DNA from: a virus
Length of the DNA stretch: 10,734 bases
Virus genome (UHGV): UHGV-1335316
Reading direction: 5' to 3' (one strand)
Each line of letters starts with the position of its first letter. Position 1 is the stretch's first letter. The translations under genes were made by a program, and so were the position numbers. This document shows positions 158 to 10,671 of the stretch, one piece after another. The notes under the pieces were generated by a model that was given only the letters and a program-made list of their open reading frames with translations, searched no databases and was not told the DNA's origin.

Positions 158-184
158 CAAAGAAAACCCGGCGCAGATGCCGGG
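158..184 (-). terminator. t_imm-like intrinsic terminator ending leftward cI-operon transcripts
   Basis: Hairpin cccggc(167-172)/gccggg(179-184) with a 6-nt loop; on the minus strand it is followed by a U-tract (plus strand caaagaaaa, 158-166). Position and sequence resemble lambda t_imm as recalled. Confidence 0.7.
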
Positions 185-234
185 TTGTGGTGGAGATCAA
201 TGCTTATTTGGGAGTGCTGGTTTTTTTATCGACT

Positions 235-438
235 CTAATNNNNNNNNNNNNNNNNNNNNNNNNNNNNNNNNNNAATCTTTTTGTTCCCAAGGTAATTTGG
301 CAGTTTTTCCATTGCGTAATTATCGTGTAGCCATTTTCTGAACACGCCAAGTGCCTCAATAGGATAAATCCAAGCTGTTATATGCTTATTTGCAGCTGAC
401 TGCCTGTAATTTTCGGGGAATAAATGTGGGTACTGCAC
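235..438 (-). CDS. hypothetical protein, distal ORF of the cargo in the rexAB slot; both ends uncertain
   Basis: ORF-track 67 codons with a GTG start at 438 (rc of cac 436-438) and ggggaaagg upstream. The C-terminus runs into the N-run 240-273, so the stop at 235-237 is provisional. The frame is also open upstream from 438 to a stop at 562-564, through the N-run 488-544. No recognisable motif. Confidence 0.4.
   Translation of the reverse strand: MQYPHLFPENYRQSAANKHITAWIYPIEALGVFRKWLHDNYAMEKLPNYLGNKKIXXXXXXXXXXXX
240..273. other. run of 34 N (masked bases or assembly gap)
   Basis: Directly visible; lies in the 3' end of the distal cargo ORF. Confidence 1.
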
Positions 439-466
439 CCTTTCCCCGAATTTCTCAGATAGCCCA

Positions 467-1132
467 TTAGCTGTCCAATACTTTCCCNNNNNNNNNNNNN
501 NNNNNNNNNNNNNNNNNNNNNNNNNNNNNNNNNNNNNNNNNNNNACAAAGCAAACCTCCGATCAGGTTCATGGCAATGTCAGCTATCTCTCTGAATACTG
601 CAAAATGAGTTGTCGGTATCTGATCGTTTAGCTTAATCCTTGCTCTATAGTTCTCGAATGAGATATCTATTGAAGCATTTGGGTTGTAATTTGACTTTTC
701 ATAAATCATTCGCTTAAGCGTGTACTCAGCCAAGCGAACAAAATTACCTATTGCGACTGACCTATCAAAATTGGTGGCATCTAGAGCGTAGTAACGGAGG
801 ATAGCCATGCAAACATAGTCAGGATAAGCATGAGTTTCCACGTTTGAGCTATTTAAAACGCGAGTGTATAGCTTTTCGACGTTATGAAACCCTTTCTCAG
901 CTAAATACGCAGCTACTTTTTGACCTCTGGGTTTGTTTTTCTCTGTGTTCCAGTTTGATGTGAACACCCTCAGTGGCGTGTCATCAATGCCGCATAACTT
1001 TGCGAGACCGTAGAGAGTTAGGTAAGGAGTTCCATCATTGAGAACGCCCATAGGAATATCATCAGAAACAACCTCTACTACAGGGAAAAGCTGCATTTGA
1101 TGCAGGGATTCGCTATTGCTGTTAATCGACAT
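467..1132 (-). CDS. hypothetical protein of unknown function, first gene downstream of cI (rexA position, but not RexA)
   Basis: 221-codon ORF with ATG (rc of cat 1130-1132) preceded by aagga. Same strand as cI. Translation contains no Walker A, HNH or other motif I recognise and does not resemble lambda RexA as recalled. AT-richer than cI. Contains the N-run 488-544 (19 X). Confidence 0.65.
   Translation of the reverse strand: MSINSNSESLHQMQLFPVVEVVSDDIPMGVLNDGTPYLTLYGLAKLCGIDDTPLRVFTSNWNTEKNKPRGQKVAAYLAEKGFHNVEKLYTRVLNSSNVETHAYPDYVCMAILRYYALDATNFDRSVAIGNFVRLAEYTLKRMIYEKSNYNPNASIDISFENYRARIKLNDQIPTTHFAVFREIADIAMNLIGGLLCXXXXXXXXXXXXXXXXXXXGKVLDS
488..544. other. run of 57 N (masked bases or assembly gap)
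   Basis: Directly visible; inside the C-terminal part of the 221-codon cargo ORF. Confidence 1.
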
Positions 1133-1218
1133 ATCTTAATGATTTCCTTATTTTTATTGTAGGGATCTTCTTTTTTATTTCCTACATCTAGATGCGTATA
1201 AAGTCTCTTGCTGCGGAC

Positions 1219-1938
<720 letters not shown>

Positions 1939-1945
1939 TTAAATC

Positions 1946-2011
1946 TATCACCGCGAGGGATAAATATCTAACACCGTGCGTGTTGACTATTTTACCTCTA
2001 GCGGTGATAAT
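1946..2011. promoter_or_regulatory. OR3-OR2-OR1 operators with divergent PRM/PR promoters
   Basis: OR3 tatcaccgcgagggata 1946-1962, OR2 taacaccgtgcgtgttg 1969-1985, OR1 tacctctagcggtgata 1993-2009. PR -35 ttgact 1983-1988 and -10 gataat 2006-2011, 17-bp spacing. cro ATG at 2036 with SD taaggagg. Confidence 0.9.
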
Positions 2012-2683: not shown

Positions 2684-2830
2684 ATGACAAAACAACTCAG
2701 TCCTTACCAGGACAAAATTCACAAACACATACTACGTGATCGCTTCCTGTCCAGCTTCAAGCAGCCTGGTCGATTCCGGGCTGAGTTGGAAAAAGTGAAG
2801 CTGATGCAGAAGGAGAAAGGTCATGAGTAA
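2684..2830 (+). CDS. small hypothetical ORF (48 aa) translationally coupled to the initiator gene
   Basis: ATG 2684 preceded by caggag; translation [48 protein letters not shown]. Its stop taa 2828-2830 overlaps the ATG 2823 of the next gene. It sits where lambda has the O start. Not in the ORF track because it is shorter than the cutoff. Confidence 0.35.
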
Positions 2831-3683
2831 TCTTGCAACCGTAACACATTTAAGGCCTTCACAACGGCCTGTGGAGCGTCGTGTGGCAGAAGTTGAAGAT
2901 GGTTATACCCGTCTTGCAAATGCCCTGTATGAAGAGCTTATCGGCGCAGATTTAACAAAAAATCAGAGCAAGGTTGCCCACGCCATATGCCGTAAAACAT
3001 ACGGATACGGTAAAAAGATGGATCGCATCTCTGATAGTCAGTTAGCTCAAATTACCAGGCTGCCAAGACAGAAGGTAAACAAGGCCAAGAATGAGCTTAT
3101 CGCGATGAAGGTAATCCTTCGCGAAGGCCAGCAAATCGGGCCTAACAAGAACATCGAGGAATGGCAAATCGAAGGGTGTCACTACTCTGGTGATAATGTC
3201 ACTGCATTGGTGACAAAAAGTGTCACCAAAACGGTGACAGCGCTGTCACCAAAACAGGGACACACAAAAGAAACTATTACAAAAGAAAAAAGAAATAATA
3301 AAAACACTATGTCCGAAAGTGTTCGGACAGAGTGTGAAAAATCATCTGACCGTCACGAAGAAACCGACAAGGCATTCGAGGAAATATTCTGGTGTGCAGG
3401 CATGCGGAAAGCCGGGAAAAAAAACGCAGCTTCGGCATTCAGAACACAGTTCAGGGAATGGCGTAAAACTACCAGGGGTACGGCAAGCGAGTTTGCCACG
3501 ATGCTGGCAGAAGACATCGCATGCAGGAATGGTAAGCAGTTCGGATTCGACAGGTTGTTACCATCGAGCTACTTGAACGGTCAGCGCTGGAACGACGAAA
3601 AGCCAGAAACCATTCAACCACAATCCAAACCATCATCCGCAATCACCGTATCGAAAACTGGCTACGTGTTTTTCGACAGGTGA
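2823..3683 (+). CDS. replication initiator with lambda-O-like N-terminal iteron-binding domain and a non-lambda C-terminal domain
   Basis: 286 aa. Residues about 25-110 ([56 protein letters not shown]...GPNKNIEEW) parallel the lambda O N-terminus as recalled. The gene contains iterons and an AT-rich tract in its middle, as lambda O does. The C-terminal half is unlike lambda O. Confidence 0.9.
3198..3310. repeat. replication origin: three or more inverted-repeat iterons followed by an AT-rich unwinding tract, inside the initiator gene
   Basis: gtcactgcattggtgac 3198-3214; tgtcaccaaaacggtgaca 3221-3239; ctgtcaccaaaacagggacac 3243-3263; then an A-rich tract aaaagaaactattacaaaagaaaaaagaaataataaaaacac 3266-3307. 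Confidence 0.7.
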
Positions 3684-3686
3684 ACC

Positions 3687-3794
3687 ATGAAATCAAAAAT
3701 CAAATCGCTACTGGTCGCTGGTTATAACCACGGCTGGTTAAGTATTTCGTTTGTCGATTTCTGGTTTAAAAATCTCAATCTGAGGGAATCATGA
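3687..3794 (+). CDS. small hypothetical ORF (35 aa) translationally coupled to the primase-helicase gene
   Basis: ATG 3687, 4 nt after the initiator stop; translation MKSKIKSLLVAGYNHGWLSISFVDFWFKNLNLRES. Its stop tga 3792-3794 overlaps ATG 3791 (ATGA). Shorter than the ORF-track cutoff. Confidence 0.3.
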   Translation: MKSKIKSLLVAGYNHGWLSISFVDFWFKNLNLRES

Positions 3795-5671
3795 GGCCAA
3801 GTGAACTTAGCGACCTGCTTTGGGCGCAGGTTGACAGGGTGGCTCCGCACCTGTTGCCAAATGGCAAGAAAGAGGGGCATGAGTGGGTTGCCGGTAACGT
3901 CAACGGTGACAAGGGAAACAGCCTTAAGGTCAACCTTAGCGGCAAGAAAAAATGGGCTGATTTCGCTGAGGGAGACGGCGGTGACATGCTTGATTTGTGG
4001 ATGGCATGTCGTGGAATTAACCTGCATCAGGCTATGCAGGAAGCGAAAGCATTTCTCGGTATCAAGGATGACGATCACCATTTCGATGCCAGACGTGAGA
4101 AAAAATTCTCCAGACCTGATCGCAAGAAAATCGCCCGCTACGTTACCAGAACAGAATCCCATCTTGAGTACCTGCAATCGCGTGGCATATCGCCAGAAAT
4201 CGTAAAGCGCTACGAGGTTGTCAGCGGCAAGGTGTGGAATGGAGAGCGGGAACTGGATGCTCTGGTGATTCCGTACAAACGCGATGGTGAGTTGTTGCAG
4301 GTCAAGCGAATCAGCACTGAGCGCCCGGACGGGAAGAAAGTCATTATGGCAGAAGGTGATTGCGAACCTTGCCTGTTCGGATGGCAGGCTCTGGACGCTG
4401 GCGTGAGGGCGGTTGTACTTTGCGAAGGCGAAATTGATTGTATGAGCTATGCGCAATACGGCATCTCGGCGTTATCCGTACCGTTTGGTGGAGGGAAAGG
4501 CGCTAAGCAACAGTGGATTGAGTTTGAGTATCACAACCTCGACAGGTTTGAGGAAATATTCATCTCGATGGACGTTGATGATGTTGGTCGTGAAGCCGCA
4601 AGGGAAATCGCAAGCCGACTCGGTGAACATCGTTGCCGTCTTGTTACTCTGCCGTGCAAAGACATCAACGAATGCCTGATGAACGGTGTTACCGAGGATG
4701 AAATCTGGCAGTACATCGGCACGGCATCCTACTTCGATCCTGAAGAACTCTACAGCGCGCGAGAGTTTTACCAGGACACTATCAACGCTTTCTACGGCAA
4801 GCAGCAGTATCTGTTTAATCCACCGTGGGAATCTCTGGCAGATAAATTCCAGTTCCGTGAGGCAGAGTTGACGCTGGTCAATGGTGTGAACGGTCACGGA
4901 AAAACGGAGGTTGTCGGGCATATGGCACTTGAGGCAATGCGTCAGGGTGTGAAGACGTGCATCGCGTCACTTGAGCTGAAGCCTGGTATTCTCCTTAAGC
5001 GCCTTACCCGTCAGGCGACGTGCTGCAAGATGCCGCCAGTGCTGGAAATTGACTCTGCATTTAAATTTTATGACGAAAGACTTTGGGTGTTTGGCCTGAC
5101 CGGAACGGCGAAAGCCGACAGGCTGATCGAAATATTCGACTACGCTCGCCGCCGATACGGGATCCAGTTATTCATCATCGACAGCCTGATGAAATGTGGC
5201 ATAGGCGACGATGACTATAACGGGCAGAAGGCGTTTGTTGACTCGATTTGCGACTTCAAAAACAAAACAAACTCCCACGTCATTCTCGTTACTCACTCGC
5301 GAAAAGGAGACAGCGAAGAAAAACCAACCGGGAAAATGGACGTAAAAGGCTCTGGAGCGATAACAGACCTGACAGACAACCTTTTCATCATCTGGCGTAA
5401 CAAGGCTCGCGAGAGAGCGTTACAGAGAGTTCAGAGTGGTGAAAAGATGTCAGAGAAGGACGAACAGCTACTGGCATCTCCGGCATCTGTTTTGATGCTT
5501 GAAAAACAACGTAACGGCGAAGGTTGGGAAGGTGGTGTCCCGTTGTTCCTTGACGAGCAATCGCACCAGTTCCTGCAACTTGAATCAGGATCGCCATATA
5601 GCTACATCGCCAATATGCCGAAATCGGAATATGACGAGGCGTGGCGACAGGAAAACGTGACGGAGTATTAA
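3791..5671 (+). CDS. bifunctional DNA primase/helicase-like replication protein (TOPRIM domain plus P-loop ATPase)
   Basis: 626 aa. TOPRIM signature: acidic E in VVLCEGEIDCMSY and a DxD cluster in ISMDVDDVGREAA. Walker A GVNGHGKTE and Walker B-like LFIIDSLMK in the C-terminal half. SD gaggga before the ATG. It replaces lambda P. Confidence 0.85.
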   Translation: MRPSELSDLLWAQVDRVAPHLLPNGKKEGHEWVAGNVNGDKGNSLKVNLSGKKKWADFAEGDGGDMLDLWMACRGINLHQAMQEAKAFLGIKDDDHHFDARREKKFSRPDRKKIARYVTRTESHLEYLQSRGISPEIVKRYEVVSGKVWNGERELDALVIPYKRDGELLQVKRISTERPDGKKVIMAEGDCEPCLFGWQALDAGVRAVVLCEGEIDCMSYAQYGISALSVPFGGGKGAKQQWIEFEYHNLDRFEEIFISMDVDDVGREAAREIASRLGEHRCRLVTLPCKDINECLMNGVTEDEIWQYIGTASYFDPEELYSAREFYQDTINAFYGKQQYLFNPPWESLADKFQFREAELTLVNGVNGHGKTEVVGHMALEAMRQGVKTCIASLELKPGILLKRLTRQATCCKMPPVLEIDSAFKFYDERLWVFGLTGTAKADRLIEIFDYARRRYGIQLFIIDSLMKCGIGDDDYNGQKAFVDSICDFKNKTNSHVILVTHSRKGDSEEKPTGKMDVKGSGAITDLTDNLFIIWRNKARERALQRVQSGEKMSEKDEQLLASPASVLMLEKQRNGEGWEGGVPLFLDEQSHQFLQLESGSPYSYIANMPKSEYDEAWRQENVTEY

Positions 5672-5753: not shown

Positions 5754-6365
5754 ATGCGAATAAAAAAAACAATTGATCACGATGAGCTTCTGTCAACATT
5801 ATCATATGACTCAGAAACAGGAATATTTAAATGGCTAAAAACAAATTCAGTAGTAAGAGTAAAAGGTAGTATTGCTGGAGGTGTTAGTGGTGGTTATATA
5901 TGCATTAGCATAAATAATGTTTTGTATTATGCGCATAGGCTTGCTTGGTTCTATGTATACAAAAAATGGCCTCCTAAGTTTATTGATCATGTAAATGGGA
6001 ACAGACTTGACAATAGGATTTCAAATCTAAGACTGGCAACAGAGGAGCAGAATGCAAGAAACATTGTAGGTAATAGGTTAAACACATCCGGTGCGATTGG
6101 AGTGTCTTGGGATAAGACAACTGGCAGGTGGAAGTCTTATGTTGGTTATAAAAATAAGACAATATCGTTAGGGTATTTCGATAGCAAAGAAGATGCAGCA
6201 TTCATAGCAGCACTAGCAAGAAAGAAACTATATGGAACTTATGCGAGTAAAGCACTTAATTGCGAGCATGAGCTTTTATCTCAATTTAATAATGATGAGG
6301 ATAAACTTGCGGAATATCTTAAGGAAAAATCTAAAAGGACTCGAAAGCGTGTTAAAAAAAGATAA
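5754..6365 (+). CDS. HNH endonuclease with C-terminal AP2-type DNA-binding domain (homing-endonuclease-like)
   Basis: 203 aa. HNH_3-type motif IDHVNGNRLDNRISNLRLATEEQNARN; AP2-like segment GVSWDKTTGRWKSYVGYKNKTISLGYFDSKEDAAFIAALARKKLYG; basic tail. The gene and its flanks are markedly AT-rich compared with the neighbouring genes. Confidence 0.9.
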   Translation: MRIKKTIDHDELLSTLSYDSETGIFKWLKTNSVVRVKGSIAGGVSGGYICISINNVLYYAHRLAWFYVYKKWPPKFIDHVNGNRLDNRISNLRLATEEQNARNIVGNRLNTSGAIGVSWDKTTGRWKSYVGYKNKTISLGYFDSKEDAAFIAALARKKLYGTYASKALNCEHELLSQFNNDEDKLAEYLKEKSKRTRKRVKKR

Positions 6366-9896: not shown

Positions 9897-10211
9897 CCAG
9901 AAAAAAATGACCTGTTAGCCGCCATTCTCGCGGCAAAGGAACAAGGCATCGGGGCAATCCTTGCGTTTGCAATGGCGTACCTTCGCGGCAGATATAATGG
10001 CGGTGCGTTTACAAAAACAGTAATCGACGCAACGATGTGCGCCATTATCGCCTGGTTCATTCGTGATCTTCTCGACCTCGCCGGACTAAGTAGCAATCTC
10101 GCTTATATAACGAGCGTGTTCATCGGCTACATCGGTACTGACTCGATTGGTTCGCTTATCAAACGCTTCGCTGCTAAAAAAGCCGGAGTAGAAGATGGTG
10201 GAAATCAATAA
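9888..10211 (+). CDS. S: holin/antiholin S (class I holin)
   Basis: 107 aa [107 protein letters not shown], lambda S-like. Confidence 0.95.
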
Positions 10212-10671
10212 TCAACGTAAGGCGTTCCTCGATATGCTGGCGTGGTCAGAGGGAACTGATAACGGACGTCAGAAAACCAGAAATCATGGTTATGACGTCA
10301 TTGTTGGCGGAGAGCTATTCACTGATTACTCCGATCACCCTCGCAAACTTGTCACGCTAAACCCAAAACTCAAATCAACAGCAGCCGGACGTTACCAGCT
10401 TCTTTCCCGTTGGTGGGATGCCTATCGTAAGCAGCTTGGCCTGAAAGACTTCTCTCCGAAAAGCCAGGACGCTGTGGCACTGCAACAGATTAAAGAGCGT
10501 GGCGCTTTACCGATGATTGATCGCGGTGATATTCGTCAGGCTATCGACCGTTGCAGCAATATCTGGGCTTCACTGCCGGGCGCTGGTTATGGTCAGTTCG
10601 AGCATAAGGCTGACAGCCTGATTGCAAAATTCAAAGAAGCAGGCGGAACGGTCAGAGAGATTGAGGTATGA
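10195..10671 (+). CDS. R: endolysin R (lytic transglycosylase)
   Basis: 158 aa [51 protein letters not shown]..., lambda R-like. Overlaps the S 3' end. Confidence 0.95.

Follow-up and report, generated by a model that had tools for sequence, protein, structure and literature searches.

The stretch of DNA analysed here, hereafter the window, comprises 10,734 nt of the virus genome UHGV-1335316, and this study concerns the roughly 1-kb cassette between its cI repressor gene and the t_imm terminator, where phage lambda carries rexAB. The first-pass annotation, made from the letters alone, had seen two open reading frames (ORFs) of unknown function there. The occupant is a member of the BstA family that stands directly after the repressor gene and is followed by a terminator, and the 'unknown cargo in the rex slot' corresponds to a published defence system. 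The family is already known, having been described in 2021 with its E. coli version experimentally tested, and there is no new family to claim. We are highly confident that 197-1132 on the minus strand is bstA, a single-gene, prophage-encoded abortive-infection defence that replaces rexAB in the cI-to-t_imm slot of a lambda-immunity prophage. The features at the centre of this assignment are the following.

197-1132, minus strand: bstA coding sequence, stop codon TGA at 197-199; 301 codons (906 nt) in unmasked identical relatives, broken and lengthened by masks in the window
1219-1935, minus strand: cI repressor gene of lambda immunity, immediately upstream of bstA and in the same orientation, with an 86-nt gap; includes a 10-N mask at 1597-1606
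165-186, minus strand: t_imm Rho-independent terminator, an 8-bp stem with 6 G-C pairs followed by TTCTTTGCC; from the terminator scan, the CL707 annotation and the lambda alignment

BstA in the cI-to-t_imm slot

The cassette is bounded on both sides by lambda sequence. To the right, lambda and the window share 97% DNA identity from position 1212 rightwards, spanning cI (megablast), which agrees with the lambda-type cI of the first-pass annotation. To the left, positions 1-186 align with lambda from oL3 to t_imm, and the homology ends right after the hairpin, whose stem starts 10 nt past the bstA stop codon. The t_imm-like terminator proposed near the left edge was correctly recognized, as the GenBank record of phage CL707 labels the t_imm bases of an identical sequence 'Timm'. 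Because the lambda-like flanks end at the hairpin and at about 1212, a cassette of about 1 kb (about 188-1211) replaces rexAB. As first noted, the G+C content of the cargo gene is below that of cI (0.42 vs 0.457).

The 301-aa protein belongs to the BstA family over its full length. It matches the PADLOC BstA model PDLC02356 with an E value of 1.3e-105 (residues 8-286 against profile positions 4-281 of 292) and PHROG 6287, 'BstA abortive infection system, replication inhibitor', with an E value of 6e-133 (residues 5-301 against 3-304 of 304). BLASTP against the founding member, BstA of Salmonella phage BTP1 (BstA-BTP1), gave 130/306 identical residues (E 5e-84; residues 2-300 against 4-305), tblastn gave likewise, and this 42% identity spans 99% of the length and both halves of the protein. 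RefSeq, in several genomes, and UniRef list exactly this protein under the name 'BstA C-terminal domain-containing protein', and 109 of 110 homologs, the 93%-identical cluster representative among them, carry a precomputed match to the C-terminal BstA domain PF26567. Invariant residues of the homologs cluster in the C-terminal half. An AlphaFold2 model, built on that cluster representative with 60 homologs, has a mean predicted local distance difference test score of 86.5, and in it an alpha/beta N-domain (about residues 17-118) precedes a helical C-domain. The earlier suggestion of an accessory exclusion module expressed from the prophage therefore guessed the function well, BstA being an abortive-infection system, and erred in holding the cargo unplaceable in a known family. 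The profile searches that had been proposed as a check gave a strong match in PADLOC and none for this protein in the local Pfam copy; a Pfam scan of 62 family members returned only stray weak helix-turn-helix (HTH) matches.

The cargo is unrelated to the lambda exclusion proteins, as had been claimed. Single-pair BLASTP comparisons reached E values of 0.056 at best with RexA and 3.6 with RexB, hence no similarity, and the PADLOC matches besides BstA comprised one marginal generic HTH model (E 0.0015) and no Rex model. The slot is filled by one ORF in unmasked identical sequences, not by a two-gene operon of sensor and effector as in RexAB.

The two ORFs (a 221-codon ORF at 467-1132 and a second at 235-438) on which the first-pass annotation was built are a masking artefact. 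The window contains only three runs of N (240-273, 488-544 and 1597-1606), all of them inside bstA or cI. Alignment to unmasked relatives indicates that 34 N stand in place of 17 nt in the first mask and that 57 N plus 10 unmatched nt stand in place of 54 nt in the second, while the third leaves cI 3 nt too long. Masks aside, positions 100-1250 of the window are identical to the prophage of E. coli STEC1587 and to phage CL707, both of which have a single annotated 906-nt ORF in the slot (WP_000026554.1 / ABO40695.1). Since the mask lengths are unfaithful and identical relatives carry a single ORF, the ORFs 467-1132 and 235-438 are fragments of one 301-codon gene. The exact 301-aa sequence is present on 645 contigs (UniRef look-up, with the CL707 protein as representative).

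Expression of bstA in the lysogen is expected to follow that of cI. The promoter concerned lies upstream of the repressor gene.

1942-1970, minus strand: PRM within oR3/oR2, with the -10 at 1942-1947 and the -35 at 1965-1970; coordinates carried over from the CL707 GenBank annotation

A promoter scan located PR at 1983-2011, at the expected offset. The minus strand of the 86-nt gap between cI and bstA was scanned for promoter-like and terminator-like sites, and none was found; the likeliest arrangement is therefore transcription of cI and bstA from PRM with a stop at t_imm, and we infer that the two genes are co-transcribed in the lysogen.

Relation to the tested E. coli system and rival explanations

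BstA was defined by Owen et al. 2021 (Cell Host Microbe; PMC8585504), who reported abortive-infection defence for homologs from BTP1, Klebsiella and E. coli NCTC10963 (BstA-Ec). Stop-codon and heterologous-expression experiments demonstrated direct, protein-dependent phage defence for the three homologs, including the one from E. coli (PMC8585504). BstA is made in the lysogen and, upon infection by a sensitive phage, forms foci with the replicating phage DNA; phage DNA replication is blocked and the cell lyses with no progeny released (PMC8585504). The sensitive phages include P22, ES18 and 9NA in Salmonella, and lambda, phi80, P1 and T7 are sensitive to BstA-BTP1. The carrier prophage is spared on induction by aba, a DNA element that in BTP1 is 63 bp long, takes in 29 bp upstream and the first 34 bp of bstA, and has CCCGCC direct repeats at its ends; it acts as DNA, is needed in multiple copies in trans and protects against the cognate BstA only, and BTP1 aba gives no protection against BstA-Ec (PMC8585504). 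How aba DNA silences BstA was named as an open question, the repeat was mentioned for BTP1 alone and not for other homologs, and the correspondence between the positions of BstA and of rexAB in lambda was already discussed there, with Degnan et al. 2007 cited for the cassette hotspot (PMC8585504). Our search for literature on aba later than this paper found none.

The allele in the window is very likely the tested NCTC10963 allele, with a few substitutions possible, as judged from the following comparisons. The end of the bstA-Ec forward cloning primer, GTCCGCAGCAAGAGACTTTATACG, matches the window exactly at 1195-1218 (minus strand), and the end of the other cloning primer, GCGTTTTTTGGGGGCGTTAGGC, matches 136-158 with one extra G in a G-run; the primers thus anneal at both edges of the cargo. 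Most of the forward primer falls within sequence specific to the cassette, left of the lambda junction at about 1212, and the tested locus therefore carries the upstream region of this cassette. Both loci also have a lambda-type cI upstream, t_imm as terminator and the same aligned length, and the global identity to BstA-BTP1 is 42.0-42.7% here, depending on the denominator, against the 41.7% published for BstA-Ec. The window copy differs in being masked in two places. Table S1 of PMC8585504 further includes E. coli 2012C-4431 (CP024289, 382841-383737), whose protein is the identical WP_000026554.1. With BstA-BTP1, the window shares full-length homology in both domains, the place directly after the prophage repressor, an own Rho-independent terminator and a direct repeat across the start codon whose copies are 56-57 bp apart; the BTP1 carrier, in contrast, is P22-like with a different repressor, and its repeat is CCCGCC as opposed to ATCCCT(A/G)CA in the window.

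By analogy with BTP1 and with the published E. coli locus that has the same flanks, the BstA of the window would act in abortive-infection defence. In the proposed mechanism, a cI-bstA transcript from PRM (and PRE), ending at t_imm, would supply BstA in the lysogen. The protein would gather at the replicating DNA of an infecting phage and block its replication, leading to lysis without progeny, and the prophage would escape its own BstA on induction through aba DNA overlapping the bstA start. This element would be aba-Ec, placed at 1096-1166 and recognised by the N-terminal DNA-binding-like domain of BstA. The cargo is one gene and no two-ORF module, and the partner of BstA in such a system is a short DNA element over the start codon rather than a second protein.

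Several observations count against this account. Scans of the 301-aa protein with the local Pfam-A and NCBIfam libraries returned no match, and the KilA-N-like character of the N-domain is weakly supported by structure comparison. Identity to the tested BstA-Ec rests on the primer matches, the equal aligned length and the similar identity to BTP1. Two masks and a 10-nt patch at 545-554 (ACAAAGCAAA) block read-through of the window's own bstA copy, and the patch is unmatched among 113 fetched loci and in species-representative genomes. It may be an assembly gap artefact, masking or a real variant, and a real frameshift or insertion may be present in this genome. The intactness of the masked copy is the main uncertainty for the window. 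Accordingly, the foremost alternative is a decayed, non-functional bstA remnant from which no protein is made, the masks and the patch hiding a real insertion or frameshift. In the window as given, the frame of the 5' fragment does run into a stop at 467-469, and the patch turns GGGFP into GGLLC. However, all three mask lengths are unfaithful, including one in an otherwise intact cI, and apart from 545-554 the unmasked bases agree fully with an allele found intact on 645 contigs. Moreover, a freshly broken cargo gene is unlikely in a prophage whose cI, cro, cII, replication, Q and lysis genes are all intact. We therefore regard decay as improbable.

The other alternatives concern function. A main role in host physiology or virulence is suggested by the history of the family: the BTP1 gene was first named st313-td and tied to virulence phenotypes, the BTP1 record still carries that name, and reports of virulence and anti-virulence effects are cited in Owen et al. 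(PMC8585504). No mechanism has ever been proposed for those phenotypes, whereas direct protein-dependent phage defence was shown for three homologs including that of E. coli. The two roles are compatible; it is very unlikely that virulence is the main one at the expense of defence. A KilA-N/Ant/Bro-like regulator of the prophage, that is, an antirepressor or transcription factor instead of a defence effector, is less probable still, since the resemblance exists only at the domain level and the full-length profile matches are to BstA. The least probable explanation is the original one, an unclassified two-ORF exclusion module, which has the masked ORF picture in its favor and nothing more, and which is refuted by the single ORF in identical unmasked sequences and the strong matches to the BstA family. 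A single bstA gene remains by far the best account of the cassette.

The start-codon repeat in the window and across bstA loci

The region around the bstA start codon of the window contains a direct repeat at the position where BTP1 carries aba. The coding-strand sequence of this region is ...AGATCCCTACAATAAAAATAAGGAAATCATTAAGAT-ATG-TCGATTAACAGCAATAGCGAATCCCTGCATCAAATG..., and its features are the following.

1096-1166, minus strand: candidate aba-Ec DNA element over the start codon, about 70 bp, bounded by the two repeat copies; positional equivalent of the 63-bp BTP1 aba
1153-1166, minus strand: repeat copy 1, ATCCCTACAATAAA, in the intergenic region between cI and bstA, 34 nt before the ATG; non-coding, with an in-frame TAA before the ATG
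1096-1109, minus strand: repeat copy 2, ATCCCTGCATCAAA, starting at +24 of the reading frame (23 nt after the A of ATG), codons 8-13
1141-1149, minus strand: bstA ribosome-binding region, AAGGAAATC, from the sequence and a comparison of 85 loci

The core of the repeat is ATCCCT(A/G)CA, present as ATCCCTACA (1158-1166) and ATCCCTGCA (1101-1109), 57 bp apart with 8/9 matches, the first beginning 34 nt ahead of the A of ATG and the second 23 nt past it. An independent repeat search recovered this pair as a 14-nt repeat with 11 matches. Of 5000 dinucleotide shuffles of this region of the window, 68 produced an 8/9 repeat at the corresponding place with a spacing of 55-58. The arrangement resembles that of BTP1, where the CCCGCC copies, at a spacing of 56 bp, begin 28 nt to either side of the A of ATG. 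The inactivating aba mutation in BTP1, CCCGCC to CCCTCC (PMC8585504), moves the BTP1 repeat towards the E. coli motif. We infer from sequence comparison that 1096-1166 is a candidate for aba-Ec, and the N-terminal DNA-binding-like domain of BstA probably recognises it.

Some caution is warranted for this window-specific call. The published bstA-Ec locus conferred on P22 immunity to BstA-Ec only, and aba-Ec itself was left unmapped (PMC8585504). The repeat in the window is imperfect (8/9), and some close relatives of the window allele share merely a (G/A)ATC core between copies, with spacing 57 still the best in the closest relatives. Owing to this drop in similarity, our confidence in the repeat of the window itself is moderate.

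Across the family, the repeat recurs at a fixed distance. The comparison covered 80 diverse bstA loci, taken from species-representative genomes, together with 26 close relatives on viral contigs. Spacing was counted in 74 non-redundant loci, using for each the best direct repeat within the 170 nt that precede the invariant Met-Gly codons. This repeat had a spacing of 56 or 57 in 30/74 loci, compared with 0-6 of about 70 in four equally sized control regions, and the binomial probability of this excess against uniform spacing is 3e-25. The motifs differ between lineages and include CCCGCCA, GATCGCCA, GATCCC(G/A)GG, TTGGTCACCACC, AAGGAAATCA(G/C), AAGGGAATCGG and others. Within a locus, the two copies match at a mean of 7.83/10 positions, against 6.08/10 across loci (0/5000 permutations), and matches of at least 9/10 occur in 42% of loci against 4% of cross-pairings, an effect confined to spacing 55-58. 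A start-codon repeat at 56-57 bp spacing that is lineage specific and whose copies co-vary within the locus is thus seen at 1096-1166 (minus strand) of the window and in the compared loci L004 and L006-L109. By its sequence and position, the family-wide repeat appears to generalise the CCCGCC terminal repeats of BTP1 aba.

A second bstA allele in the same setting suggests how the motif and the protein may be linked. E. coli ZH063 (locus L113, 2597-3620, corresponding to window 197-1218) carries it after the same lambda-type cI. The identity between the two BstA proteins is 36% over residues 1-25, 89% over residues 26-95 and 99% from residue 96 onward. The ZH063 repeat, GATCTCAGTG / GATCGCAGGG, is 57 bp apart, and both its motif and its upstream region differ from those of the window. 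This pattern would fit a recombinational swap of an 'aba + N-terminus' specificity module, which possibly puts the ZH063 allele in a different self-immunity group. Because at least two bstA alleles with different first 25 residues and different repeat motifs exist among the lambda-immunity prophages of E. coli, we lean, by a narrow measure, towards a general reading of aba as a bipartite DNA element present throughout the family. Two lineage-specific motif copies of 8-15 nt, 56-57 bp apart across the bstA start and co-varying, would make up this element, with the motif (here ATCCCT(A/G)CA) setting the cognate specificity read by the BstA N-domain. If this is true, the alleles would be distinct self-immunity groups made by swapping that module. 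The locus thereby offers a testable proposal for aba-Ec and for aba specificity, namely a fixed repeat spacing of 56-57 bp with lineage-specific motifs, and it remains of value for this proposed element and for the repeat architecture of the family. As a natural lambda-immunity carrier of BstA, it is also convenient for genetics in E. coli K-12.

Other explanations for the start-region sequences were considered and rejected. The repeat is not a duplicated peptide, as 16 of the 29 loci with matches of at least 9/10 have a spacing of 55 or 56, which is not a multiple of 3, and copy 1 of the window is non-coding. Dam (GATC) methylation was likewise rejected. GATC occurs in both repeat copies in most enterobacterial alleles (loci L006-L008, L019 and L091-L108); copy 2 of the window reads AATC and BTP1 aba, the only mapped aba, is without GATC, making a methylation switch unlikely as a general mechanism. 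A hairpin at 1091-1105 (minus strand; CTGCATCAAATGCAG), flagged as terminator-like, was considered as an attenuator. It has the form CTGCAT-CAA-ATGCAG followed by CTTTTCC and overlaps repeat copy 2. Since it is unconserved in close relatives, the attenuator was rejected, and the hairpin is probably incidental to the codons for LHQMQLFP.

Two further patterns were observed around the start. The gap between cI and bstA contains a second direct repeat, AGGAAATCATTAAGA / AGGAAATAAAAAAGA, at 1134-1148 and 1169-1183 (minus strand), with 12/15 matches and a spacing of 35. The 9-mer AAGGAAATC is found near the start of many distant homologs, sometimes as a ribosome-binding site and sometimes as in-frame Lys-Glu-Ile.

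Other occupants of the slot and neighbouring genes

The slot between cI and t_imm is a site of cassette exchange in lambda-immunity phages. Lambda RexA/RexB and BstA share this slot, the strand, the presumed transcription from PRM and an abortive-infection exclusion in the lysogen. Rex comprises two proteins, including a membrane ion-channel effector, whereas BstA is a single soluble protein of two domains and blocks the replication of phage DNA; the two have no sequence similarity, and the self-immunity of BstA comes from a DNA element. Other lambda-immunity phages, from the set of Degnan et al. 2007, have varied and unrelated cargos in the slot: HicAB in mEp234/HK106, gp48/gp49 in HK97 and two hypothetical genes in HK244/HK542/HK544. 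These have the same flanks (cI, t_imm, oL) and cassette exchange, with a gene content unrelated to bstA. CL707, from the same set, carries this exact bstA gene.

The window as a whole opens inside oL3 of a lambda-immunity prophage and continues with t_imm, the cargo, cI, cro, cII, an O-like replication gene, a Toprim/DnaB-like primase-helicase, NinB, NinG, a phosphatase, Q, a holin and a lysozyme. An Rfam scan of the whole window returned no family at the gathering threshold. The replication module (2823-5671, plus strand) consists of an O-like initiator followed by a 626-aa protein with Toprim and DnaB-like primase-helicase character, instead of lambda P. The identical bstA-cI cassette accompanies other replication modules in STEC1587 and ECO3183, and one cassette with differing replication modules indicates mosaicism around the immunity region. 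An inserted 203-aa ORF (5754-6365, plus strand) with HNH_3 (E 8e-16) and AP2 (E 1e-7) matches, which resembles a homing endonuclease, separates the primase-helicase gene from the NinB region. After the holin, a 158-aa ORF (10195-10671, plus strand), which had no match in the local Pfam library at an E value of 0.001, is lysozyme-like by its position and by inspection of its sequence by eye.
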